Assembly: GCF_055900595.2 (NCBI RefSeq)
Contig: NZ_CM148325.1
Strand: one strand, 5' to 3'
DNA: 64,000 nt
The position numbers and the translations under genes were made by a program. The notes under the pieces are model-generated. The model ran no database searches. It was not told the DNA's origin and saw only the letters and a list, made by a program, of their open reading frames with translations. Position 1 is the stretch's first letter. Each line of letters begins with the position of its first letter. Below, piece by piece: positions 1 to 50,577 of the stretch.

Positions 1-126
1 CAGATATCTTGTCGCACCTGTTTTCGCTTCCAGTTGTCGTAACGTCTCGCGCCCGCTCTGTCGCACGAGTTCGACAACCTGCCTCTTAATTTTTTCCCGC
101 TCTTCCTGTGTAAATACTTTTTTCAC
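1..126 (-). CDS. Hypothetical phage protein, partial (3-prime end cut by window edge)
   Basis: GTG at 126 preceded by AGGAGG (131-136, minus strand); open to window edge; translation VKKVFTQEEREKIKRQVVELVRQSG... Confidence 0.35.
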   Translation of the reverse strand, partial: MKKVFTQEEREKIKRQVVELVRQSGRETLRQLEAKTGATRYL

Positions 127-155
127 AAGTCCTCCTGAAAAATCTCCTTCACAAT

Positions 156-821
156 TCATACAAAACCAGCCGCTTTCCGGCGTTCATACTCCTGTTTCAG
201 CAACTCAATTGGCGTTGGTCCCGACGGGCGTTTGGGGGCAGCCAGTTGTCGCCGGACTGGCGGAACGCTGAGGCCCATACCAACATGCTTTGACCATTTC
301 GTCAGTTGCCGTTCTGCAAACCGTTTTAACTCCCCTTCGGTCATCTGGCGTTCAATCCCCTTTGAACGCATCTCGAGGCATATGTGATACAGCACAGGCT
401 GAGACCACGGGTATTTATCGCTTCCGTCGTATCGCCAGGACTCATTGCGCCAGCGTCGGTACTCCTCCATCACAGCCCCCACCGTCAGACCGAATGGATT
501 GGCCCCGCTTTCCGGAATCAGTGCCACAAACTCAGCCAGGTCAGGAGGCCATGTTTCACCCGCCCGGCAGCGGTCCATGCACTGGCGGCAGACCTGCCGG
601 ATTTGCTGCTCAGTCATCGCGCCAATCTGTGCAATCCAGAGCTTCGAAGGTGCGGCCCCGTTCTTCCGGGTCCAGCGGTCCGAATAAACCTCCCCCATGA
701 GTTCCCACAGCTTCCAGGCTGTTTCCGTCGCTGATAAATCCGTTTTCACGTTCCCACTGCTCACGTGCTGCCCGAATTTCCTGAACTGCCCGTGATGCGG
801 TGCCACCTGGTGCTGCTGCAT
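156..821 (-). CDS. Replication protein P-like (DnaB helicase loader family)
   Basis: 221-aa ORF; C-terminal half resembles lambda P (YPW...LY...M motif region); AAGGGGG RBS before ATG at 821; alternative in-frame starts at 698 and 617. Confidence 0.55.
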   Translation of the reverse strand: MQQHQVAPHHGQFRKFGQHVSSGNVKTDLSATETAWKLWELMGEVYSDRWTRKNGAAPSKLWIAQIGAMTEQQIRQVCRQCMDRCRAGETWPPDLAEFVALIPESGANPFGLTVGAVMEEYRRWRNESWRYDGSDKYPWSQPVLYHICLEMRSKGIERQMTEGELKRFAERQLTKWSKHVGMGLSVPPVRRQLAAPKRPSGPTPIELLKQEYERRKAAGFV

Positions 822-1650
822 GGTTCACCCCCTTGCTGACTGGTTTAACCTGCGCCCTGACGTGATTTACGTGACGGGCGAATTTCTGCTCCCACTGAAC
901 CTGTGTGAACACTTTCCCCTCCGCCATCCAGTAATCCCGGAAGGCGGCAAGTTCAGCAGGTGTAAATTCCGGTTCCGGCAAAGCCGCTCCCCACAACGCA
1001 GCCCGCCGTCGAAAATCCAGCGACGGATGCCAGCCATCGGTCATCGGAAATTTTCCGATGGGTTCGCTCAGGCCATCCAGGAATACAGGGGGGGCTGCCT
1101 GTAACGACAAAACTTCCTGCTCACTGATCGGAGCACTCTCGCGTGTGTTATGTGTGGGGTTTAGATCTTTGGGTTCCTTTGGGTTCCGTGATCCGTTTTT
1201 GGGTGTCTTTGATGGAAAATTTGGGTGTTTTTGGTTATTTTCCATGCAGCTAAGAGTTCCGTTTTTGGGTCTGTTTTGTGCTGAAACATAACCATTTTCG
1301 GTACTGTTTTTATTAACAGCACCAATTTTACCCTCCTTTAAAGACTCCCGTTTTTGGGTGTATTCAGGCTCTGCAACGCTTTCTTCTACACCGATAAGTC
1401 GGTACACCACGATTTGCTTTGTTCGGCCTTTTCTCTCACCGGTATCAACAATTAACCCAATCTCCATCAGGTGTCGTAAGCTGTCCTGCACAGTCTTTTT
1501 GTTCAGTTCCGTTACTTCTGCCAGTGCAGATACAGACGGGTATGCACACAAATCGGCACCGCACATATCAGCAAGCCAGGTCAATACTGACTTACTGGAT
1601 GAACTGCCGGTTTTCACCTTTTTAGCCCATCGTAGTGCATCGATGCTCAT
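610..1650 (-). CDS. Replication initiator, O-like: N-terminal HTH, Lys/Asn/Pro-rich linker, C-terminal DnaT-like domain
   Basis: ATG at 1650 with AGGAG RBS; N-terminus MSIDALRWAKKV... HTH-like; C-terminus FTPAELAAFRDYWMAEGK resembles DnaT C-terminal domain; iterons lie inside the linker coding region. Confidence 0.65.
   Translation of the reverse strand: MSIDALRWAKKVKTGSSSSKSVLTWLADMCGADLCAYPSVSALAEVTELNKKTVQDSLRHLMEIGLIVDTGERKGRTKQIVVYRLIGVEESVAEPEYTQKRESLKEGKIGAVNKNSTENGYVSAQNRPKNGTLSCMENNQKHPNFPSKTPKNGSRNPKEPKDLNPTHNTRESAPISEQEVLSLQAAPPVFLDGLSEPIGKFPMTDGWHPSLDFRRRAALWGAALPEPEFTPAELAAFRDYWMAEGKVFTQVQWEQKFARHVNHVRAQVKPVSKGVNHAAAPGGTASRAVQEIRAAREQWERENGFISDGNSLEAVGTHGGGLFGPLDPEERGRTFEALDCTDWRDD
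1160..1365. repeat. Putative phage replication origin iterons (TTTGGGT-core repeats) followed by AT-rich stretch
   Basis: TTTGGGTTCC at 1168-1177 and 1178-1187; CCGTTTTTGGGTGT at 1193-1206 and 1349-1362; CCGTTTTTGGGTCT at 1259-1272; TTTGGGTGTTTTTGG at 1220-1234; AT-rich 1290-1345. Confidence 0.45.
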
Positions 1651-2173
1651 ACGAACTCCTGGCAGACATTTGTTTATCTGCAAAGTAATATTGATATTGC
1701 TGACGATACGCATGCTTGAAAGCAATAGCTTTTTCTATAAGCTCGTCAGTCTCACGTTCCACAACAGATGGATCCGCAAAAAGCAGCCCGGACTCCACCA
1801 CATCGCCATATTCTTTGTTTAACCCGGCGATCATGTACGTAATGCTTTTTCCGTCAGTAATTTCACAATACAACCTGAAATCGCTGATCCGGATAGCCTC
1901 CATAATTGCCGGAATCAGCGCCGTGAATTTTTCCCGCTTATCCCTGGTGTCGATAGCTTTCCAGCGTTCGAATATCTTCACCCGGTTAACGCCCAGCGCC
2001 CGTTGATCAACCTCGCCATCATTAAACGTGACGCGTTGAACATCGATGTTCGGGCGTTCTTTCAGAGCCCAGAATGCTTCCGTGATTAATATCGTCGCCT
2101 GCTCCTGTGTCATTCCTGGTCGGCATACCCAGGCATCCAGAGCCTCACAAACCTGTTCAGGGGTGATTTTCAT
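1622..2173 (-). CDS. YdaT-like protein (Rac prophage ydaT family), downstream of cro-like gene
   Basis: 183-aa ORF; N-terminus MKITPEQVCEALDAW resembles Rac YdaT; overlaps the cro-like stop and the O-like start. Confidence 0.5.
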   Translation of the reverse strand: MKITPEQVCEALDAWVCRPGMTQEQATILITEAFWALKERPNIDVQRVTFNDGEVDQRALGVNRVKIFERWKAIDTRDKREKFTALIPAIMEAIRISDFRLYCEITDGKSITYMIAGLNKEYGDVVESGLLFADPSVVERETDELIEKAIAFKHAYRQQYQYYFADKQMSARSSYEHRCTTMG

Positions 2174-2384
2174 TGTTCAACCGCCCCGCCCGCTTCGTCT
2201 TACGATATTCGTCATAAACTTTGGGGTCGTACTGAAGTTCCCCGCCAGATGCCTCTTGCAGGCGCATCGCGCGACCTTCAGGAACCAGTTCTCCCCATTG
2301 AGAAACAGCAGATGGATCAACACCAGCAGCTTTCGCTACTTTGGCTTTCGTCCCATAAAAATTAATTACGTCTGATTTAAACAT
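2157..2384 (-). CDS. Cro/YdaS-like HTH DNA-binding protein
   Basis: ATG at 2384 with GGAGGGG RBS; small HTH protein (AKVAKAAGVDPSAVSQW) divergent from the repressor gene. Confidence 0.6.
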   Translation of the reverse strand: MFKSDVINFYGTKAKVAKAAGVDPSAVSQWGELVPEGRAMRLQEASGGELQYDPKVYDEYRKTKRAGRLNNENHP

Positions 2385-2461
2385 CACCCCTCCAAAGTTG
2401 AGTTTTCTCAATGGTAATCACTCAAGGAATCTCAAGCCAAGGGTTATTAAGATATCTAAAT
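2385..2461. promoter_or_regulatory. Divergent immunity promoter/operator region (OR-like)
   Basis: 77-bp gap between divergent cro-like and CI-like starts; palindrome TTGAGTTTTCTCAA at 2398-2411 plus repeated CTCAAG half-sites at 2421-2436. Confidence 0.4.
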
Positions 2462-2869
2462 ATGAACGAGAAAACTTTAGGTCAACGAATTAGAGAAAGA
2501 CGCAAACAGGTTGGTTTAAGTCAAAACGATTTAAGCAAAGCTGCTGGCGTATCTGGCTCATCAATTTCACTATGGGAAAGCGACCATACAGCCCCGCGCG
2601 GGCAAAATTTGCATCGCCTGGCTGAGGTATTGCAATGTTCACCAACTTGGATACTGTTTGGTGACGAGGATAAAACACCAGATCCACCAGTTGCACTCAA
2701 CAGCGCCTTAGACTTATCGGAAGATGAGTTGGAGATGTTGCGATTGTATCGCGCACTTCCAAAATCAGAGCAGCAAGCACAAATCAGCGAACTCCGTGCC
2801 CGCGTTGAGAATTTTAATCGCCTATTCACCGAGCTACTAGAAGCTCGCAAACGTAACAAACATCAATAA
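2462..2869 (+). CDS. CI-like phage repressor, XRE-family HTH, no S24 peptidase domain
   Basis: HTH motif GLSQNDLSKAAGVSGSSISLWE; 135 aa; C-terminal helical region only; divergent from cro-like gene. Confidence 0.65.
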   Translation: MNEKTLGQRIRERRKQVGLSQNDLSKAAGVSGSSISLWESDHTAPRGQNLHRLAEVLQCSPTWILFGDEDKTPDPPVALNSALDLSEDELEMLRLYRALPKSEQQAQISELRARVENFNRLFTELLEARKRNKHQ

Positions 2870-2931
2870 CCCCCCTTCACAAATTTTAAAGCCTTACATT
2901 TCAATGTATTGGCTTTATTTTGCATTAAATA

Positions 2932-2982
2932 TTGAGTTTTCTAATCAAAACACTTGACCAATTTTCATGAGAAAACTAAATT
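2932..2982 (+). promoter_or_regulatory. Candidate PL-like promoter with operator (OL-like)
   Basis: TTGAGTTTTCT at 2932-2942 repeats the OR motif; -35 TTGACC 2954-2959, 17-bp spacer, -10 TAAATT 2977-2982; inverted repeat AGTTTTCT (2935-2942) / AGAAAACT (2970-2977). Confidence 0.35.
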
Positions 2983-3063
2983 ACCATCCATCAAGACACC
3001 GCACGGTGTTCTCAGCAAACAGTTCCGCTACCCCGGCGTTAAGGGGAAACAGAGGATTTCTCA

Positions 3064-3420
3064 GTGGGCGAAGTCAAACATCAGAATGGAAGGCATCCCG
3101 GGATCGGCAAAGAAGCAGCAATGGCGCTTTATATTGACATCAGCGCCATTGCCGGACAGGTAAGAATTATCAGAGCGGTAACTAAGCGGTATGTGCCTTT
3201 ACTTCAGAAAGGCTCCGGTGATTACACCGAAGATATTGTCAACGATTTCCTCATCGAATTGCGAGGACTCATCTTCAGTTACAAGGTGACCACAATTTTT
3301 GCAGATGGCTCCCGCGAAACTGTCAGAGCCCTGCGGCTTAAAGGATGTGTCGAAGACTTCGCCACCACATTCTGGGCAAGAAAACTTGATTGTATTCATA
3401 ACCAATTTCCTCTCGGGTAA
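3064..3420 (+). CDS. Hypothetical protein, first ORF downstream of candidate PL (N-gene position); mutually exclusive with the antisense ORF 3199-3399
   Basis: GTG start with AGAGGA RBS 7 nt upstream; 118 aa; orientation fits the rightward early operon; no recognisable family. Confidence 0.35.
   Translation: MGEVKHQNGRHPGIGKEAAMALYIDISAIAGQVRIIRAVTKRYVPLLQKGSGDYTEDIVNDFLIELRGLIFSYKVTTIFADGSRETVRALRLKGCVEDFATTFWARKLDCIHNQFPLG
3199..3399 (-). CDS. Small zinc-ribbon protein (CPECGG...CKNCGH), candidate moron; mutually exclusive with 3064-3420
   Basis: ATG at 3399 with AGAGGA RBS 8 nt upstream; two CxxC pairs 17 residues apart; 66 aa. Confidence 0.4.
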   Translation of the reverse strand: MNTIKFSCPECGGEVFDTSFKPQGSDSFAGAICKNCGHLVTEDESSQFDEEIVDNIFGVITGAFLK

Positions 3421-4016
3421 CAGACCCCTCAGAGGATACCACCTCGCCTGACGTGGTTAAAAGCAGGCACACAACACGAAAGCGCACGGCGAGGTAGCTG
3501 GTTCATATATAGCCTGTCGTTAAATTTTCGTCGACCGTGCGCTTCCGGTTGTGGCACTCCGCGAAATGGCGCGGCGGTAAGCATGGCGGGGTTCCCTTCC
3601 CCTTGAGGACACCGGGTTGTCAGGTTGACCATGCGCCTGAGTGACAACCCCGCTGCAACGCCCTCTGTTATCAATTTTCTGGTGACGTTTGGCGGTATCA
3701 GTTTTACTCCGTGACTGCTCTGCCGCCCTTTTTAAAGTGAATTTTGTGATGTGGTGAATGCGGCTCAGCGCACGCGGAACAGTTAAAACCAAAAACAGAG
3801 TTATGGGTGGATTCTCTGTATCCGGCGTTAATTGTTAACTGGTTAACGTCACCTGGAGGCACCTGGCACCGCATCAACAAAGTTCACTTCGGTGATGAAA
3901 GGTAAGAGAAAATGTTGAATGTAGCTATTGAAAACCAGTACGGGTGGAATTATAGTGCACCTGCACCTCATAAAACGGGTGCCGGGCGTGGAAACCCGAA
4001 AGTTACTCGAGCGCAT

Positions 4017-4039
4017 AACCGCGCCGAAGCGGTTTTTTT
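4017..4039 (+). terminator. Candidate rho-independent terminator upstream of the Rha gene
   Basis: AACCGC-GCCGAA-GCGGTT hairpin followed by TTTTT. Confidence 0.4.
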
Positions 4040-4208
4040 ATGCGTAATGCACAGCCACATTCAGATAATGGTGGGGCGTGCAGGGCAGCTGCAAGGCTGG
4101 CCGGGTTCTCGAGTGACCGGTATTTCCACCCCTGTACGTCTCGCCACCCTTATGGTCGTGGAAAGCCTCGGTGGTGAGTTAATTAACTTAACACTTGAGG
4201 ATGCCATC

Positions 4209-4760
4209 ATGGCTACTACCCTTACCCTTTCTCACCCTGACGTAACCATTGAAAATGGTCGCGCTGTCACTACGTCTATTGCGATCGCAGAATTCTTCGG
4301 CAAGCAGCATCACCATGTTGTTCAAAAAATAGAGGCCCTCGAATGTTCTGAACGCTTTTTAACCAGCAACTTTTCGCGGGTTAAATTCGAGCACCGTGGC
4401 AATACCTACAATGCCTACCAAATCACCAAAAACGGCTTCGTTTTCCTGGTGATGGGCTTCACCGGCAAAAAGGCCGCTGCATTCAAGGAAGCCTACATTG
4501 CCGAGTTCGACCGCATGGAGGAAGAACTGCGCCGGAATAACACCACACCCGCTGACAAAATAATCCCGGGTGATGGCCGCACCCTGGTTATCCGCTTCGA
4601 CGAACACGGCTACATCAAATTCACCGAAACCGTTCCTGATGGCGCACTGGTCTGTACTCTGGATACTTTCCGTTTTTATCTGGAAAAGCAGGGATGGACT
4701 CTCATAAACCGGGGCGCAATTAAAAATATGACCGTCGAGCAGTTGCTGAGTATTAAATAG
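4209..4760 (+). CDS. Phage regulatory protein, Rha family (antirepressor-like)
   Basis: N-terminus TTSIAIAEFFGKQHHHVVQKI matches Rha-domain signature; GAGGA RBS before ATG 4209; in-frame ORF is open upstream to 3912, so the start is uncertain. Confidence 0.6.
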   Translation: MATTLTLSHPDVTIENGRAVTTSIAIAEFFGKQHHHVVQKIEALECSERFLTSNFSRVKFEHRGNTYNAYQITKNGFVFLVMGFTGKKAAAFKEAYIAEFDRMEEELRRNNTTPADKIIPGDGRTLVIRFDEHGYIKFTETVPDGALVCTLDTFRFYLEKQGWTLINRGAIKNMTVEQLLSIK

Positions 4761-4805
4761 TTTTCTGGAATTTCCTTCATATCACAAATTATTAAGGAGA
4801 TTATT

Positions 4806-5027
4806 ATGATTGCTCATCACTTCGGAACCGATGAAATACCACGCCAGTGCGTCACTCCCGGCGATTACGTTATTTACGAAGGCCGGACATATGTTGCATC
4901 GGCAAACAATATCGAAAAGCAAAAACTTTATATCCGTGATTTCACTACAAAAACATGCATTACTGACCGCATGATTAAAGTCTTCCTCGGTCGTGATGGT
5001 TTACCTGTAAAGGCGGAGGCATGGTGA
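4806..5027 (+). CDS. Hypothetical small phage protein
   Basis: ATG preceded by AAGGAG at 7-nt spacing; 73 aa; no recognisable family. Confidence 0.55.
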
Positions 5028-5146
5028 GCTGTAATAAATAACTGACCCAATACGACATTCAGCTTAATAAATACATAAGGGTCGATTCTTATATGCCAGC
5101 AATGGCAGGGATTCGCACAACCTTAAAACAGCAATGAGGTTTATCA

Positions 5147-7600
5147 ATGAGCACTGATAAAGAAACTTTTGCGCTATATTGCGAAGCTAAAAATGACAAA
5201 GTCAGAAAACGCCTTGGGATTAAAGGTGGTTTTTACTGGACTACAGCAAAAAAATTATCTGTTGCCATCTCCCGCTGCATTACCGCAATGGATGATAACG
5301 ATTATGATGAAGACGACTTTAAAAAACCTGTTCGCGTCCATTTGCCCGTTGTTGATGACCTTCCACCGGAAGGCGTGTTTGATACCGAATTCTGTAACCG
5401 GTATGAAAAAGGCGGCGAAGATGGCATCACAATGATATTTATCGCGCCTCCGCCATCCGCGCAGGACAAACCAGCCAGCACTGACAACACCAATGTTAAT
5501 GGCGAAGACATGACTGAGATTGAGGAGAATATGCTTCTGCCGGTTTCAGGTCAGATTCTGCCTGTTCGCTGGCTGGCGCAACACAGCGGCGAAAAACCAG
5601 TAACGCACGTTTCGCGGGATGAACTGCGCTCATTACATAACGCACAGGAAGAAAAACTTCCCGCCGTTACCGCGCTGGCCATCTCAAATAAAGCAGCGCA
5701 ACTCGAACCGCTGGAGATTCGGGATTTGTACAAACTGGTGCGGGACACTGACAAAGTTTTTCCCGCCCCCGTAAATTCAGACCTGGGACTGATGACCTCC
5801 TTCATCGAAGCATACCTGGACGCTGACTACACTGATCGTGGTCTGCTTACAAAAGAGTGGATGAAAGGAAATCGTGTTTCTCGCATCAGTCGCACACCAT
5901 CCGGCGCTAACGCTGGCGGCGGTATTCTTACCGATCGCGGCGAAGGTTTTGTGCATGATAATGCGTCAATGGCATTCGATGTTGCTACAGGAAAACTGGC
6001 TCGTTCGATGGATGTGGATATTTACAACATGCATCCTTCACATACCAGACGTGTTAACGAAATTATCGCAGAAAATGATCCCTGTTTCTCCGTCTTCCTT
6101 AAGGCTTTTCTGAACATGCCAGGCGGGATGGATTATTCCCGCGCCATCGTGGTTGCCTCCGTGAAAGAAGCACCGGTTGGTATAGAGGCTATGCCCCACC
6201 GCGTCACCGAATACCTGAATAAAGTGCTGACCGAAACCGATCATGCCAACCCTGATCCGGAAATCGTGGATATTGCCTGCGGTCGTTCCTCTGCCCCAAT
6301 GCCGCAGCGTGTAACAGAAGAAGGAAAACAGGATGATGAAGAAAAACCGCAACCGTCTGGCGCAATGGCAGATGAACAGCCAACGACTGAAACAGTGGAA
6401 CCGGATACAACTGAACATCATCCGGACACGCAGCCGCTGGATGCTCAGCCGCAGGTGAATTCTGTTGATGCGAAATATCAGAAACTGCGGGCAGAACTCC
6501 ATGAATCCCGGAAAAACATTCCGCCCCAAAATCCTGTCGACGAAGACAAATTGCTGGCAACCTCTGGCGGAGAATTTGCTGAAGGGATTAGCGACCCGAA
6601 TGATCCGAAATGGGTGAAGGGGATTGAAACCCGCGATTCTGTGAACCAGAACCAGCAAGAATCGGAACAGAACGACCAGAAAGCGGAAAAAAACAGCCAA
6701 AATGCGTTACAAAACGAGCCAGAAACGAAACAATCCGAACCAGTAGCGCAACAGGAACCGGAAAAAGTCTGCACCATCTGCGGTCAGAGCGGTGTCGGCA
6801 ACTGTCCTGATTGTGGCGTGGTGATGGGCGACGCAACATACCAGGAAATGTTCGATGAAGATAATCAGCCTGAAGTTCAGGAAAATGATCCAGAGGAAAT
6901 GGAAGGCTCTGCGCATCAGAACAAGGAGAACTCTGGCGGCAATCAGCATCATGCCAGCGATAGTGAAACTGGCGAGACGGCAAATCCCTTAATTAAGATA
7001 ACCAGTCATCACAAATATAAGTCCACAAGCAAAACGTGGTATCACCTGATGATCGACCTTGAAACAATGGGAACCAACACCAATGCACCCATAGTAGTTA
7101 TTGGTGCGGTTTTCTTCGACCCGGAAACAGGGGAAATCGGGCCGGTATTTTATATCGTTATCAGCCTGACTGACGCAATGAATACAGGGGCTGTTCCTGA
7201 TGGTGGCACCATCGAATGGTGGCTGAAGCAGTCCAGCGAAGCCAGAGCTGCCATTTTAACTGACCAGGTAAAAATGAAAGATGCCCTTTTGCGTTTTCGG
7301 GAATTCGTCAATGAACACTCTGATGAAAAATTCGTTCAGGTGTGGGGTAATGGCGCAACGTTCGATAACGCAATTTTGCGCACCTCATACGAACGTCTGG
7401 ACATCCCCTGTCCGTGGCATTACAGCAACGATCGTGATGTACGCACAATCGTTGAGATGGGGAAAATCACAGACTTCAATGCCAGAAGCGTAATTCCATT
7501 CGAAGGCGTGCGCCATAATGCTCTGGATGACGCTCTTCACCAGGCAAAATACGTAACAGCCGCTATACAAAAACTGATCCCGAATCAGGCTGATTTTTAA
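5147..7600 (+). CDS. Exonuclease: RecE (exonuclease VIII) N-terminal-region homolog fused to a C-terminal DnaQ-like DEDDh 3-prime-5-prime exonuclease domain
   Basis: 817 aa; middle region ([19 protein letters not shown]...[43 protein letters not shown]) matches the RecE N-terminal part as recalled; C-terminus has [15 protein letters not shown] and HNALDDA motifs; acidic linker with CTICG-x7-CPDCG zinc-ribbon-like motif. Confidence 0.75.
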
Positions 7601-7664
7601 TGTTCAACCCCGGTCGTCGCCCACCGGCTATAGTGGCGGCGACCATGATTAGCGAACGACGCTC

Positions 7665-7913
7665 ATGGCAAGACTTATTCTGCTCACTGAGTGGGCAAAA
7701 GAGGAATTCAGTGAACCGGTCCCTAGTCCGGGTACGTTAAGTAAATACGCTAAAGCCGGAATGATATTTCCTCTCCCCAAAAAAGTAGGAAGGCACTGGC
7801 GAGTGGATCCACGCGCTCGCTTTGTCGGAATGGTAAACAAGCCGGAGGTGATCGCCACAGATCACCCTGCTTTGAAGAGGATACTGGAAGATGGCGCGCC
7901 CGCGAAAATATAA
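7665..7913 (+). CDS. xis: Excisionase (lambda Xis-like)
   Basis: 82-aa ORF overlapping the int start; LTEW...IFPLPKKVGRHWRV resembles lambda Xis. Confidence 0.55.
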   Translation: MARLILLTEWAKEEFSEPVPSPGTLSKYAKAGMIFPLPKKVGRHWRVDPRARFVGMVNKPEVIATDHPALKRILEDGAPAKI

Positions 7914-9021
7914 AACCGATGTTCCGGGTTTATCTCCGTATTTTGACAAAAGAAATAACAAAGTTTACTGGCGTTACAGGCATCCCATCACAGGTAAAAA
8001 TCATGGACTCGGCAGTATTGACCAGAAACTGGCGGAAACCATTGCAGCAGAAGCGAACAGCCGTCTTGCCAGACAACAAATGGAGCAAATGCTCAGTCTG
8101 CAGGAGAAAATTATTAGTGATACCGGCGGCGCATCAACCGTTTCCATTTTTCTGAATAATTACAGAAAAATTCAACAGGAAAGATATGAGAACGGAGAGA
8201 TCAAACTCAGCACGCTGAAGCAAAAAGCGGCTCCTCTCAGGGTGTTTGATGAACGTTTTGGAGCCAGGCCGCTAGATGCCATAACCGTAAAAGATGTGGT
8301 ATCGGTGCTGGAAGAATACAAGGCAAAGGGACATAACAGAATGGGACAAATTTTCAGGAAGGTATTGATCGATGTTTTCCGGGAGGCTCAACAAACGGGT
8401 GATGTTCCGCCAGGCTTTAACCCGGCTGAATCGGCAAAAAAACCGCAAGTGCGGATATCAAGACAGCGACTGACTTTTGATGAGTGGATGATGATTTATA
8501 ACGCAGCGGAAAAGGATGGTTACTTTTTACAGCGCGGCATGCTGCTGGCACTGATGACGGGCCAGCGTCTTTCGGATATTTGCAAAATGCAGTTTTCGGA
8601 TATCCGGGATGGTTACCTTCATGTCGAACAGCAAAAAACAGGAGCCCGGATAGCCATTCCTCTGGCTCTGCGTTGCGACAAATTAAATCTTACCCTGGGT
8701 GACGTGGTGTCATCCTGTCGTGATTACATCCTTAGTCCGTGGTTATTGCACCATCATCACGCTAAGGGGATGGGTAAGCGCGGCGGGATGGTTAAACCAG
8801 CAACATTAACAGTCGCATTTAAAAAAGCCCGGGATTCTGTGGATTACAACTGGCGTGCTAATGGCACGCCACCCTCTTTCCATGAGCAAAGATCTTTATC
8901 AGAACGATTGTTCAGAGAACAGGGAATTGATACCAAAATTTTGCTGGGCCATTCGAATCAAAAAATGACCGATATTTACAACGACGCACGCGGTAAAGAG
9001 TGGAAAAAACTGGTTATTTGA
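7891..9021 (+). CDS. int: Tyrosine recombinase, lambda-family integrase
   Basis: 376 aa; conserved R...HxxR...Y catalytic region (GQRLSDICKMQFSDI, FHEQRSLSERLF, LLGHSNQKMTDIY) similar to lambda Int. Confidence 0.85.
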   Translation: MARPRKYKTDVPGLSPYFDKRNNKVYWRYRHPITGKNHGLGSIDQKLAETIAAEANSRLARQQMEQMLSLQEKIISDTGGASTVSIFLNNYRKIQQERYENGEIKLSTLKQKAAPLRVFDERFGARPLDAITVKDVVSVLEEYKAKGHNRMGQIFRKVLIDVFREAQQTGDVPPGFNPAESAKKPQVRISRQRLTFDEWMMIYNAAEKDGYFLQRGMLLALMTGQRLSDICKMQFSDIRDGYLHVEQQKTGARIAIPLALRCDKLNLTLGDVVSSCRDYILSPWLLHHHHAKGMGKRGGMVKPATLTVAFKKARDSVDYNWRANGTPPSFHEQRSLSERLFREQGIDTKILLGHSNQKMTDIYNDARGKEWKKLVI

Positions 9022-9061
9022 TAACCAGTTTTGCAGAAGAGTTTTGCAGAGGTTTTGCAGA
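9008..9061. repeat. Candidate attL arm: 10-bp perfect inverted repeat over the int stop plus three tandem GTTTTGCAGA direct repeats
   Basis: AACTGGTTAT-TTG-ATAACCAGTT at 9008-9030; GTTTTGCAGA at 9028-9037, 9041-9050, 9052-9061; lies between int stop (9021) and ompW stop (9067). Confidence 0.3.
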
Positions 9062-9066
9062 GAAAA

Positions 9067-9705
9067 TTAGAAGCGGTATCCGGCAGAGAACATAAACACC
9101 CACGGATCCAGTCGTACCGCGTCTTTCACGGGGGTTCCATTAAATTTATAGCTGGCGGTGGTGTCGATATCCATGTACCAGACTGACATGTTCACCAACC
9201 AGTCACGGTTAATCAGATAATCAACCCCCACCTGCCCGGCAGCTCCCCAGGAGTCTTTCAGACTGAGATCGGAAAGTCCCGCCTCTTTGCCATGATCGTT
9301 GAATCCATTATCAAAGAAGGTGGTGTAGTTAATACCTGCCCCAACGTAAGGACGGAATTTGCTGCTGGCATCACCAAAATACCACTGCGCCATCAGTGTT
9401 GGCGGCAGATGATGAACGGTTGCAATATCGCCGGTCGCCCGGGTGCCGATTTTATGGCGGAACGGCGTCGCTGCCAGCAATTCCACACCAATGTTATCGG
9501 TCGCCATATAAGTAAACGTCAGGCCCAGTTGCGTGTTATTGGTCACGCTGAATCCACCCAGACTTCCTAACGTACCACCAGCACCTTCTGTTGGACGTAC
9601 GGTTGCAGAACCTGCACGCATAAAAAATTCGCCTGCTTCATGCGCAAAGGCACTGCCAGAGAGAAGAGTTGTTACTGCCAAAGCCGCCACTGTTAACTTT
9701 TTCAT
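9067..9705 (-). CDS. ompW: Outer membrane protein W
   Basis: 212-aa product from MKKLTVAALAVTTLLSGSAFA signal peptide; GGAG RBS before ATG 9705. Confidence 0.9.
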   Translation of the reverse strand: MKKLTVAALAVTTLLSGSAFAHEAGEFFMRAGSATVRPTEGAGGTLGSLGGFSVTNNTQLGLTFTYMATDNIGVELLAATPFRHKIGTRATGDIATVHHLPPTLMAQWYFGDASSKFRPYVGAGINYTTFFDNGFNDHGKEAGLSDLSLKDSWGAAGQVGVDYLINRDWLVNMSVWYMDIDTTASYKFNGTPVKDAVRLDPWVFMFSAGYRF

Positions 9706-9808
9706 ATCCGCTCCGTCGTTATGGTTATAAAAACGTGACGAATATACCCACATTGGAGTAACAAATGATCCTACATAGATCACATTACATATGATAATTC
9801 ACCCTTTA

Positions 9809-9822
9809 TTGATCTGGATTAA
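9809..9822. promoter_or_regulatory. Candidate FNR-type site upstream of ompW
   Basis: TTGAT-CTGG-ATTAA, about 110 bp upstream of the ompW start. Confidence 0.3.
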
Positions 9823-10061
9823 TTTAGAAGTTGCACTGGAAATCCTGGTTAATGTGATTTAAATCAATTTTTAAATATTTTCGCTACGCAAATATTAACT
9901 CGCTCGCCACTTGCAGCGGTTTGCCCACGCCTGAAGGCCAGCAATTACCTCCGCTTTACAAAGATATGCTTTTCCATACAAGACCTGATGCTGCCACCCG
10001 AGGCTTAACCAGGGTACAATTGCCCGCTAATTAACACCTGCATAAAACTCAAGGAGAGTGC

Positions 10062-10805
10062 ATGTCTATCACGGCGCAGTCCGTATACCGTGACACCGGA
10101 AATTTCTTCCGTAATCAATTTATGACCATTCTGTTGGTATCGTTGCTATGTGCGTTTATCACAGTGGTGTTAGGGCATGTTTTCTCACCCAGTGATGCAC
10201 AGCTTGCACAGCTCAATGACGGCGTGCCCGTTAGCGGCAGTAGTGGGTTGTTCGACCTGGTGCAGAATATGTCACCGGAACAGCAACAAATTTTGCTGCA
10301 GGCTTCAGCGGCGTCCACTTTTTCAGGATTAATCGGTAACGCCATTCTCGCCGGAGGCGTAATATTAATTATCCAGCTGGTGTCTGCGGGTCAGAGAGTC
10401 AGTGCGCTTCGAGCTATTGGTGCCAGTGCGCCGATATTGCCAAAGTTATTTATTCTGATTTTTCTGACTACCCTTTTAGTACAGATTGGCATCATGCTGG
10501 TGGTCGTTCCGGGAATTATCATGGCCATTTTACTGGCTCTGGCACCGGTGATGTTGGTACAGGACAAAATGGGCATTTTTGCCTCGATGCGCAGCAGTAT
10601 GCGGCTGACATGGGCGAATATGCGTCTGGTGGCACCCGCGGTACTGAGCTTGTTGCTGGCAAAAACACTATTGCTACTTTTTGCCTCTTCTTTTGCCGCA
10701 TTAACCCCGGAAATTGGTGCCGTACTGGCGAACACCTTGAGCAATCTGATTTCAGCCGTACTGCTCATCTATCTGTTCCGCCTGTATATGTTGATTCGCC
10801 AATAA
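10062..10805 (+). CDS. yciC: Inner membrane protein YciC (UPF0259)
   Basis: 247-aa ORF, multi-pass membrane protein matching E. coli YciC. Confidence 0.9.
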
Positions 10806-10834
10806 CCTTAAGCATTTGATTACGGAATCGTAAA

Positions 10835-11374
10835 ATGAAGCAGTTTCTTGATTTTTTACCGCTGGTTGTTTTTTTCGCGTTTTACAAGATTTATGACATC
10901 TATGCGGCTACTGCGGCGCTGATCGTCGCCACGGCGATTGTGCTTATATATAGCTGGGTTCGCTTTCGTAAGGTTGAGAAGATGGCCCTGATCACTTTTG
11001 TTCTGGTGGTCGTCTTCGGTGGCTTGACGCTGTTCTTCCACAATGATGAGTTTATTAAATGGAAGGTTACTGTCATTTATGCCCTGTTTGCAGGTGCCCT
11101 GTTAGTCAGCCAATGGGTGATGAAAAAGCCGCTAATTCAGCGGATGCTGGGTAAAGAACTCACGCTGCCGCAACCGGTATGGTCGAAGCTGAATCTGGCC
11201 TGGGCTGTTTTCTTTATCCTTTGCGGTCTGGCAAACATCTACATCGCATTCTGGCTGCCGCAAAATATTTGGGTCAACTTTAAAGTGTTTGGCCTGACCG
11301 CTCTTACCTTAATCTTCACATTGTTAAGCGGTATCTATATCTACCGCCACATGCCGCAGGAAGATAAATCCTAA
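10835..11374 (+). CDS. yciB: Intracellular septation protein A (YciB)
   Basis: 179-aa membrane protein matching E. coli YciB. Confidence 0.9.
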
Positions 11375-11478
11375 CCAGACTGCCAGTCCTTCGGGGCTGG
11401 CACTGTATCTCCTCTGTTCTCCTCAGGAAAATCATAGTAGCATCGCGCCTGTGATTTTCCTTTTAAGTCGGTTTTACC

Positions 11479-11877
11479 ATGTCTACAACACATAACGTCC
11501 CTCAGGGCGATCTTGTTTTACGTACTTTAGCCATGCCCGCCGATACCAATGCCAATGGTGACATCTTTGGTGGTTGGTTAATGTCACAAATGGATATTGG
11601 CGGCGCTATTCTGGCGAAAGAAATTGCGCACGGTCGCGTAGTGACCGTGCGGGTTGAAGGAATGACTTTCTTACGACCGGTTGCGGTCGGCGATGTGGTG
11701 TGCTGCTATGCACGCTGTGTCCAGAAAGGGACGACATCGGTCAGCATTAATATTGAAGTGTGGGTGAAAAAAGTCGCGTCTGAACCCATCGGGCAACGCT
11801 ATAAAGCGACAGAAGCATTATTTAAGTATGTCGCGGTTGATCCTGAAGGAAAACCTCGCGCCTTACCTGTTGAGTAA
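11479..11877 (+). CDS. yciA: Acyl-CoA thioester hydrolase YciA
   Basis: 132-aa hotdog-fold thioesterase matching E. coli YciA. Confidence 0.9.
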   Translation: MSTTHNVPQGDLVLRTLAMPADTNANGDIFGGWLMSQMDIGGAILAKEIAHGRVVTVRVEGMTFLRPVAVGDVVCCYARCVQKGTTSVSINIEVWVKKVASEPIGQRYKATEALFKYVAVDPEGKPRALPVE

Positions 11878-11916
11878 TAGTCAAAAGCCTCCGGTCGGAG
11901 GCTTTTGACTTTCTGC

Positions 11917-12636
11917 TTACTGAATTTCGGTGGTGCCGTTAATTTTAAACAGGATATTCACCACAATCCCACTGCCTGGCTTACCCGGCTCATAACGCCA
12001 TCTGCGCATCGCATTTTTCACCTCACGCTCAAACATGTTCGCAGGCTTGGCTGAGAGGATTTGCACGTTATCCACGCGACCATCCGGCGTGACATCAAAT
12101 TTAACTTTAACCTGCCCTTCAATGCGCAATGCCTGTGCTCGTGCCGGATACTGCGGCTGATTGCGACTTAATGCGCGTGGTCCTGAAGCCACACTTGTAA
12201 CCGGCTTGCTGGTTGCAGCCGTCGCCGTACTTGATGTCGGGCGCGCGGGTGCCGTATTTTCAAACGGTGATGCCGGACGCGATTCTACGGGTTTGACATC
12301 GCGTTTTGGCTGCTCCTGTACCTTTTTCACCGGCTTCGGTTTTGGCTTAGGTTTCGGCTTAGGCTTTTCAATGACCACCGGTGCTTCTTTTGGCGGTTCA
12401 GGGATCGGCTCAGGTTCCGGTTCTGGCTCTACCACCGGCTCCGGTGGCGGCTGAACGGCTTGTGGCGGTTCGAGATCCGCAGGCGCAACCATCGTGACAG
12501 AAATTGGCTGCGCAGGCGCAGGTAGTTCAATAACCTGATGTACCGAGGTATAGAGCAGACCCGCCACAACAGCACCATGAATGCAGACCGAAAGTAACGT
12601 CGGCCAGGGGAAGCGGCGAGGTAAATCAAGGGTCAT
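11917..12636 (-). CDS. tonB: TonB energy transducer
   Basis: 239 aa from [17 protein letters not shown]; Pro-Glu/Pro-Lys repeat linker. Confidence 0.9.
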
Positions 12637-50285: not shown

Positions 50286-50577
50286 CAGTTATATCTCCTC
50301 CGATGACAGAAATCGGGGGAGATAATATAAATTCCTGCTTATTGTATTTCTTCATACTACCTGAACAGGTCGTTAATCAGAATTGCGAGCCTGTACCACA
50401 ACCTGCACGAAACCACTGCAACAGCTGTTGAAAAGCCGGAATGTACTCTTTATTGCAAACATTTCAGGGATGAAGTGAAGATGAATTGAGACGTAATATC
50501 CACACCAAGCCGGCGTTATCCGGTGAGGCGCAATGTTGCGGGGGCTTTATCCCTGGTGGCATTGGTTGCTGGAAAGA

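Follow-up and report, generated by a model that had tools for sequence, protein, structure and literature searches.

A lambdoid prophage arm of the PPompW type integrated within the 3' end of ompW

Introduction

What kind of element adjoins the outer-membrane protein gene ompW on contig NZ_CM148325.1 (NCBI RefSeq assembly GCF_055900595.2), where does it give way to host DNA, and did it bring anything new into the chromosome? The stretch analysed here, called the window throughout, comprises 64,000 nucleotides (nt) of one strand of this contig, and its left end is occupied by phage-type genes which the initial annotation had read as a strain-specific prophage arm lying immediately downstream of ompW and as the likeliest place for novel cargo. 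Our analysis leaves little doubt that window positions 1 to ~9185 belong to a lambdoid prophage of the PPompW type already described in the literature, of which they form the integrase-proximal (early-left) arm, and that this prophage is integrated inside the 3' end of ompW. The identification is carried by the identities of the genes, the att repeat, the hybrid ompW gene, the frequency of the junction among complete genomes, and the second junction found in near-identical genomes. A PPompW-type element in ompW is already known, and the window holds no new cargo.

Identity and distribution of the prophage arm

The results showed that the open reading frames (ORFs) of the arm match phage families at the places given in the initial annotation, and the gene order proposed there (int, xis, exonuclease, a small unknown gene, Rha, immunity region, O-like, P-like) was confirmed by the ORFs together with family searches (Table 1). 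Nakamura et al. (2021) define a PPompW by its integrase gene, which must share >90% identity with the O145:H28 PPompW integrase over >90% of the length; with LC567822, not strain 112648, as the reference, int of the window is 93.0% identical in nucleotide sequence (over the full 1131 nt) and 96.8% identical in amino acid (aa) sequence to intE of PPompW_132418 (LC567822), and xis is 96.4% identical in nucleotide sequence to xisE of the same prophage. The published elements are lambda-like prophages in ompW with a 121-bp attL and attR, whose attP was sequenced from excised circles (PMC8112680), and the window prophage likewise lies in ompW with a 121-bp repeat, one of the two copies of which falls within the window. 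The organisation is lambda-like as well, the window order int-xis-exo...repressor-cro-cII-like-O-P being continued in the genome Ch1 by Q, lysis, terminase, head, and tail genes, and the top matches in the phage database were 'Enterobacteria phage PPompW_*' entries, along with Stx2a phages nested inside such prophages.

The K-12 strain MG1655 has no prophage at this place, ompW being followed directly by yciE-yciF-yciG, and none of the phage genes occurs in that interval, so the arm is accessory DNA, as had been proposed. The rest of the window (9186-64000), which runs from ompW to ychF, is collinear with K-12, with identities of 95.2-99.0% (95.7-98.0% in the long blocks), and this confirms that only the integrase-proximal arm of the prophage is present. 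The element is, by contrast, not strain-specific as first described, since an int-ompW junction identical in kind was found in 1714 of 5426 complete E. coli genomes, and PPompWs have been reported from 44% of 767 complete genomes (PMC8112680). The exact mosaic of the window is rare: a 12-kb query (window 1-12000) was covered at 94% or more by two to three genomes, which are already in RefSeq.

Completeness of the prophage

Window positions 1-9400 are 99.8% identical to positions 10104-705 of the Ch1 locus (L001), where the prophage spans 46 kb and also contains Q, lysis, terminase, head, and tail genes, a gene for a YadA-type surface protein, and, beside yciE, an ompW' fragment. In GF4 the prophage measures 28 kb and ends as in Ch1, again with ompW' beside yciE, the head-tail module having been lost. 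This bears on a variant of our explanation towards which we lean, by a little, namely that the arm is part of a defective (cryptic) remnant that forms no particles and perhaps no longer excises, int, xis, and att being relics. Besides the deletion in the near-identical GF4 copy, this variant is favoured by the frameshifts of the Ch1 copy in its capsid, J, and O-like genes, which may be assembly errors however, by one genome in which int is cut by the insertion sequence IS600, and by the finding of Nakamura et al. that every PPompW they examined was apparently defective, with no packaged DNA (PMC8112680). The same study detected excised circular PPompW (attP) by polymerase chain reaction in O145:H28 (PMC8112680), which speaks against a loss of excision, and in the window each of the arm's 11 protein genes has an intact ORF, the O-like gene, whose Ch1 counterpart is frameshifted, among them.

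Integration within the 3' end of ompW

The distance of 45 bp between int and the ompW stop given in the initial annotation is correct (int stop at 9021, ompW stop codon at 9067-9069), but the att core is not at 9022-9080, where it had been placed. LC567822 annotates a 121-bp 'duplication due to insertion' that starts 43 bp past the int stop and corresponds to window 9065-9185, and by blastn window 9065-9192 is repeated at Ch1 L001 47216-47089 with 76% identity. When the junction served as query, the matches of empty-site genomes began no earlier than 9065 and extended rightwards, and 9022-9064 has no copy at the far junction. The best block of identity within the repeat is 9153-9185, 33 bp that are common to the window and the Ch1 far junction with one mismatch at 9163. 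Past this block the alignment of the Ch1 far junction continues as the native K-12-type 3' end of ompW and then yciE, and the int-proximal copy in the window departs from native ompW right after it. The boundary between phage and host thus lies at 9153-9185, about 100-120 bp further right than first thought and within ompW rather than downstream of it.

The encoded protein points to the same boundary. Of the 191 mature residues of OmpW in the window, 183 agree with the solved E. coli OmpW (2MHL/2F1T), and the 8 differences all fall within 184-196; because the differences are confined to this stretch, the last 28 codons are phage DNA. Within the shared block we infer that the crossover took place at 9164-9185, an interval bounded by a phage-specific C at 9163 and a difference between phage and host at 9186.

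The integrase has the three domains of a lambda-type enzyme, PF09003 being the arm-binding, PF22022 the core-binding, and PF00589 the catalytic domain. Its entire length can be aligned with structures of lambda Int (E 2.7e-55), and the catalytic R-K-H-R-H-Y residues are kept in comparison to lambda Int (5J0N), as seen in the motifs TGQR, KTG, FHExRS, and LLGH and the C-terminal Y. In the reading that we favour, this integrase with its arm-binding domain carried out recombination between the attP of the phage and an attB within the 3' end of ompW. A diverged copy of the gene's last ~119 bp forms part of attP, for which reason integration leaves an intact hybrid gene, the 5' part being host DNA and the last 28 codons phage DNA adjoining int, and the displaced native 3' end remains as a dead ompW' fragment at the far junction beside yciE.

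Between int and ompW stand three direct repeats of GTTTTGCAGA. The window holds exactly three exact copies of this sequence, all within 9028-9061, where 0.22 are expected, and none of 100 shuffles reached three. Copies are kept at the same spot between int and ompW' in all PPompW-type junctions that were fetched, three in eight loci and two in L005, a remnant that is disrupted by IS600 and has a frameshifted int; the spacers between the repeats vary among junctions. In Ch1, GF4, and the prophage P-EibA the far arm has a further copy, the fourth, ~120 bp away from the core. Since the integrase has a lambda-type arm-binding domain, the repeats are most likely arm-type sites, and we regard the three beside int as probable candidates for Int binding on the P' arm, together with the one copy on the other arm.

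Some further observations were made at the junctions. The native ompW terminator hairpin, which is common to yciE, stays with the displaced ompW' at the far junction (L002 1660-1720). No terminator-like site was detected after the hybrid ompW (window 9022-9066), where only the arm repeats and the convergent int are found, and the ompW and int transcripts may for this reason read into each other. In strain SMN152SH1 (L007, NZ_CP024618 2401819-2403154), int, three arm repeats, and ompW' lead into P-arm-like phage DNA where the body of ompW would otherwise stand, an attP-like, tandem, or prophage-in-prophage layout such as Nakamura et al. describe.

Several points weigh against our reading of the arm as a PPompW inside ompW. 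The closest genomes are 99.5-99.8% identical to the window, not 100%; ~80% of the prophage, with the other att junction, is beyond the window; the two att copies are only 76% identical overall; the crossover interval hangs on one phage-specific base (the C at 9163), the difference at 9186, and an assumed K-12-like host allele; and the PPompWs so far examined all appear defective (PMC8112680).

The hybrid OmpW

Four endings of OmpW were seen, namely the native one, that of the window and Ch1, the common PPompW type, and a version longer by 5 residues, so that there are at least three phage-borne versions of the hairpin tip besides the native one. The window protein has the ending SYKFNGTPVKDA, in comparison to KYKSGVTTVKDS in the common PPompW type. 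Between native and window ompW, the 12 variable codons hold 8 non-synonymous and 2 synonymous changes, and the 16 codons of the last strand hold 0 non-synonymous and 7 synonymous changes; the purely synonymous changes of the last strand argue that the phage-borne copy is old and has been kept functional as the barrel-closing strand. The OmpW barrel has 8 strands and long extracellular loops (PMC2993939), and by this structure and the usual topology the variable stretch forms the tip of the last hairpin and faces outwards. An AlphaFold2 model of the hybrid protein computed without an alignment had a mean predicted local distance difference test score of 29 and was discarded, and the topology argument rests on the literature.

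OmpW is the receptor of colicin S4 and, in relatives, of phages (PMC2649078, PMC10132071), which together with the long loops raises the possibility that the phage-borne end is an adaptive lysogenic conversion, the altered tip keeping OmpW-dependent phages or colicin S4 from recognising the lysogen. The existence of four endings, with all changes lying within 12 codons and only synonymous ones in the last strand, speaks for such a function. Plain drift gives the same pattern, however, the loops of outer-membrane proteins being their least constrained parts, and integration into the end of a gene generally yields a replacement 3' end as a by-product. Furthermore, the colicin S4 and OmpW-phage literature that we looked at yielded nothing on the OmpW loops contacted, and no contact of the last hairpin with colicin S4 or any phage was found there. 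We therefore consider an adaptive loop swap improbable, neutral loop drift accounting for the pattern of endings equally well. The broader proposal that lysogenisation at the ompW site amounts to surface conversion, each phage lineage bringing its own hairpin tip as an att-encoded means of evading superinfection or bacteriocins while strict purifying selection preserves the final strand, is to be taken as equally doubtful.

The reading in which the phage lies in intergenic DNA downstream of an intact native ompW, with its att core in 9022-9080, deserves practically no credence: the 45-bp distance and the intact ompW ORF agree with it, but it is already refuted by the junction alignment, the blastn repeat (9065-9185, with 9022-9064 uncopied), and the OmpW comparison, as the last 28 codons differ from all sampled empty-site genomes as well as from the solved OmpW at 8 clustered residues and a native-type ompW 3' fragment stands at the far junction in both Ch1 and GF4.

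Gene content of the arm

With the prophage placed inside ompW, the remaining question is what its arm encodes. The early region is a mosaic of known modules, namely DicA/DicC/DicF, a Gifsy-1-like isrK-orf45-antirepressor unit, a Rac-type Kil, and a fusion of the RecE N-terminus to a DEDDh domain. Downstream of the DicA-type repressor gene, the DicF RNA, the isrK-orf45-Rha antirepressor unit, Kil, the exonuclease, xis, and int may form one leftward operon on the + strand, and the DicC/Cro, YdaT/CII-like, O-like, and P-like genes are transcribed in the opposite direction. All genes and RNAs of the arm are within described families, and PADLOC found no defence system among ten of the eleven complete arm proteins (int left out), only generic helix-turn-helix (HTH) and DEDDh domain matches, so the expectation of novel cargo was not borne out; the real cargo of this ompW prophage type is on the far arm, beyond the window.

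Three RNAs of the arm scored above the Rfam gathering score: DicF, IsrK, and a match to the 'C4 antisense RNA' (RF01695, 73.8 bits in comparison to 45) at 4064-4151, within the 45-codon ORF. The IsrK-type RNA is flanked by the best promoter-like site of the arm (3928-3956) and by a terminator-like hairpin with a T-run (4017-4034). In Gifsy-1, IsrK switches on the translation of orf45 and thereby the antirepressor (PMC4825925), and the Rha-family regulator, probably an antirepressor like AnrP as judged from its family matches, may be controlled by IsrK and orf45 in a similar way. The NCBI Prokaryotic Genome Annotation Pipeline (PGAP) gives Rha in Ch1 and GF4 282 aa with a start at 3912, so that it runs across IsrK and the 45-codon ORF. 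The ATG at 4209 has GAGGA upstream and stands ~10 residues before the Rha domain match; it is the likely true start, and that of PGAP is probably too early.

The DicA-type repressor is without an S24 peptidase domain, which makes induction through an antirepressor plausible. The sole match of the arm to the LexA box (CTGT-N8-ACAG) is at 1304-1319, inside the O-like gene, and the window has 2 matches where 0.72 are expected; as these numbers are at chance level, they give no evidence of SOS control of the isrK/Rha module. No dicB gene was found: homology to the dicB-bearing PPompW stops at 3886, ~18 bp before the dicB start, and there is no DicB-like translation at 3780-3915. A dicB fragment labelled by PGAP in Ch1 could not be confirmed, as no DicB-like translation was reproduced.

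The small unknown gene of the initial annotation is kil, whose product is a Rac-type FtsZ inhibitor. Residues 1-633 of the 817-aa exonuclease match positions 1-620 of 877 of the exonuclease VIII profile NF007259 (1016 bits, below the cut-off of 1269), with PF06630 at 57-189, and residues 633-805 are a Rv2179c-like DEDDh domain (PF16473, E 1.5e-67). A full RecE (exodeoxyribonuclease VIII) was ruled out, given that the nuclease domain of the profile (~620-877) is unmatched, the score is below the cut-off, and the C-terminus is PF16473. The gene looks like the product of a nuclease-domain swap on a shared RecE-type scaffold. Strain 135, whose arm is otherwise similar, has a 'RecE family' allele at this position. 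No recT or bet gene was found in the arm.

Among the replication genes, the O-like gene is intact in the window and frameshifted in Ch1, and residues 194-278 of its product match the DnaT equivalog NF002770 below cut-off. The P-like gene is annotated as 'replication protein P' in Ch1 and GF4, with a PGAP start at 617. The two ORFs overlap by 211 nt (610-821) in different frames with a G+C content of 59%, and PHROG profiles match both frames; PHROG 15931 (482 aa) spans both proteins as though they were fused in some phages.

The ECs_2282-family ORF (3199-3399) is antisense to a + strand ORF at 3064/3122-3420. PGAP calls the minus ORF in Ch1 and the plus ORF in GF4; the latter is also called in LC567822, in which the minus ORF has a premature stop. 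In a codon-position test the substitutions of this antisense pair were even across codon positions.

In comparison to K-12, the host part of the window is without IS5U (ychE/oppA), ISZ (tdk/adhE), and one of three ldr/rdl copies; it has two rdlD matches, at 50577 and 51114, and two tRNA-Tyr genes with RtT repeats at 33.9-34.5 kb.

Table 1. Features of the prophage arm and its junction with ompW, and segments of the arm in comparison to the O145 PPompW (window positions)
Feature	Position	Strand	Basis
DUF977-family phage gene, 5' part, cut by window edge	1-126	-	PGAP DUF977 at Ch1 L001 9979-10401, by correspondence
P-like helicase loader	156-821	-	phrog_109, E 4.3e-59, residues 19-220
O-like replication initiator, DnaT-like C-terminal part	610-1650	-	phrog_1032 'replication initiation protein', E 1e-88
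YdaT-family / CII-like protein	1622-2173	-	phrog_163 'CII-like transcriptional activator', E 1.2e-41; PGAP 'toxin YdaT family protein'
DicC / Cro-like regulator	2157-2384	-	NF007282, 167.8 bits vs cut-off 130, full length
DicA-type prophage repressor, HTH	2462-2869	+	NF007257, 238 bits vs cut-off 101, residues 1-135 of 135
ECs_2282-family CxxC zinc-binding small protein	3199-3399	-	NF047912, 57 bits vs cut-off 37
DicF small RNA	3677-3728	+	Rfam RF00039, 76.7 bits vs gathering score 48, E 3.6e-15, full model
IsrK-type small RNA	3963-4039	+	Rfam RF01394, 67.2 bits vs 50
45-codon ORF, orf45 position	4040-4177	+	ORF list and translation
Rha-family regulator	4209-4760 (long ORF 3912-4760)	+	TIGR02681, residues 109-208 of long ORF; PHROG anti-repressor families
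Kil, Rac-type FtsZ inhibitor	4806-5027	+	NF008465, 151.2 bits vs cut-off 92, full length; phrog_294
817-aa exonuclease	5147-7600	+	RecE-type N-terminal region and DEDDh 3'-5' exonuclease domain
Excisionase xis	7665-7913	+	phrog_629, E 2.2e-34, full length
Lambda-type tyrosine integrase int	7891-9021	+	PF09003 E 1.6e-21, PF22022 E 2.7e-4, PF00589 E 9.2e-16
Three direct GTTTTGCAGA repeats (9028-9037, 9041-9050, 9052-9061)	9028-9061	+	between int stop and ompW' stop
Imperfect att repeat, int-proximal copy, 121 bp	9065-9185		alignment to K-12 and Ch1 far junction; LC567822 annotation
Phage-supplied ompW 3' end, last 28 codons and stop	9067-9152	-	comparison with solved OmpW, codon comparison
Whole hybrid ompW	9067-9705	-	host 5' part and phage 3' end
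Segment vs O145 PPompW	138-2306		96% identical
Segment vs O145 PPompW	2307-2975		unrelated dicA allele, almost no DNA similarity
Segment vs O145 PPompW	2976-3886		95% identical
Segment vs O145 PPompW	3887-5092		isrK-orf45-Rha-Kil module replaces dicB and its neighbour
Segment vs O145 PPompW	5147-6538		divergent exonuclease N-terminal half
Segment vs O145 PPompW	6539-9275		88% identical

Comparison with other prophages

The PPompWs used as comparators were those of Shiga toxin-producing and enteropathogenic E. coli (STEC/EPEC), for example P08 of O145:H28 strain 112648, PPompW_132418 (LC567822), and the Sp9-type prophage of O157. Similar to these, the window prophage has its integration site in ompW, a 121-bp att at equal distance from the int stop, and three arm repeats, and its O/P/YdaT/DicC block and DicF region are 95-96% identical; the key differences lie in the replaced segments (Table 1) and in the OmpW ending. 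The STEC-type 21-bp secondary attB GTCATGCAGTTAAAGTGGCGG had no match at up to 3 mismatches in the full Ch1 prophage, which therefore does not group with the effector-locus PPompWs.

Similar to lambda, the arm has a full-length homologous integrase with arm-binding domain and catalytic residues and an xis directly upstream of int and overlapping it, and the prophage type has clustered direct repeats on the int side and a single copy on the opposite arm, comparable to P'1-3 and P1/P2 of lambda. Unlike lambda, the att sequence and site are different (a gene 3' end here, the gal-bio intergenic region in lambda), partial homology extends over 121 bp in comparison to a 15-bp core, the arm-site sequence is unrelated, and the arm is without homologues of lambda N, cIII, exo/bet/gam, and cI/cro.

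The prophage e14 and phage 21 integrate into the 3' end of icd and bring a diverged substitute 3' end, so that the gene stays intact. The gene and the integrase are others in the present case, and another key difference is that the substituted part includes the surface-exposed hairpin tip of an outer-membrane protein.

With Qin of K-12 the arm shares DicA, DicC, and DicF, all above curated thresholds (Table 1), and with Rac of K-12 the Kil, YdaT, and RecE N-terminal families, above or near the NCBIfam thresholds. Unlike in Rac and Qin, the integrase and att site are different, dicB is missing from its Qin-type place downstream of DicF, the DEDDh domain replaces the RecE nuclease, and there is no recT.

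The isrK-orf45-anrP unit of Salmonella Gifsy-1 has its elements in the same order, first an IsrK RNA that has a promoter and a terminator to itself, then a 45-codon ORF, and then a Rha/antirepressor-type gene (PMC4825925), the likeness being one of layout. Unlike in Gifsy-1, the window locus is in the early-left operon of an ompW-site prophage and not next to antQ, and the orf45 stretch also scores in Rfam as a P1-type C4 RNA.

The right end of P-EibA (E. coli ECOR-9, AF151091) is 91% identical to the Ch1 far att/ompW' junction and shows the single far-arm copy of GTTTTGCAGA; since its sequence ends in the same att/ompW' junction, P-EibA is an ompW-site prophage too. Only its late end has been sequenced, and the likeness rests on the Ch1 far end, not on the arm in the window. 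In the corresponding slot of the late region, P-EibA and Ch1 both have a gene for a YadA-type surface protein. The Ch1 gene (L001 43095-44537) codes for a trimeric autotransporter of the YadA type, 480 aa long and with four tandem repeats of 33 residues; it occupies the slot of eibA, the immunoglobulin-binding protein gene of P-EibA, and the two products are 56% identical over the C-terminal 124 aa.

Conclusions

A publication of 2021 already described the element together with its att site and wide distribution, and its late end had been published, as P-EibA, in 2000. The practical value of the present analysis is in correct annotation: the boundary of the prophage is inside ompW, the OmpW encoded there is a hybrid of host and phage, and the PGAP start of Rha is probably ~300 nt too early. 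Should the loop swap in OmpW, unlikely as we consider it, prove real, a phage would have altered a colicin and phage receptor in about a third of E. coli strains, which would be of moderate interest for the ecology of phage-host interactions and bacteriocins.

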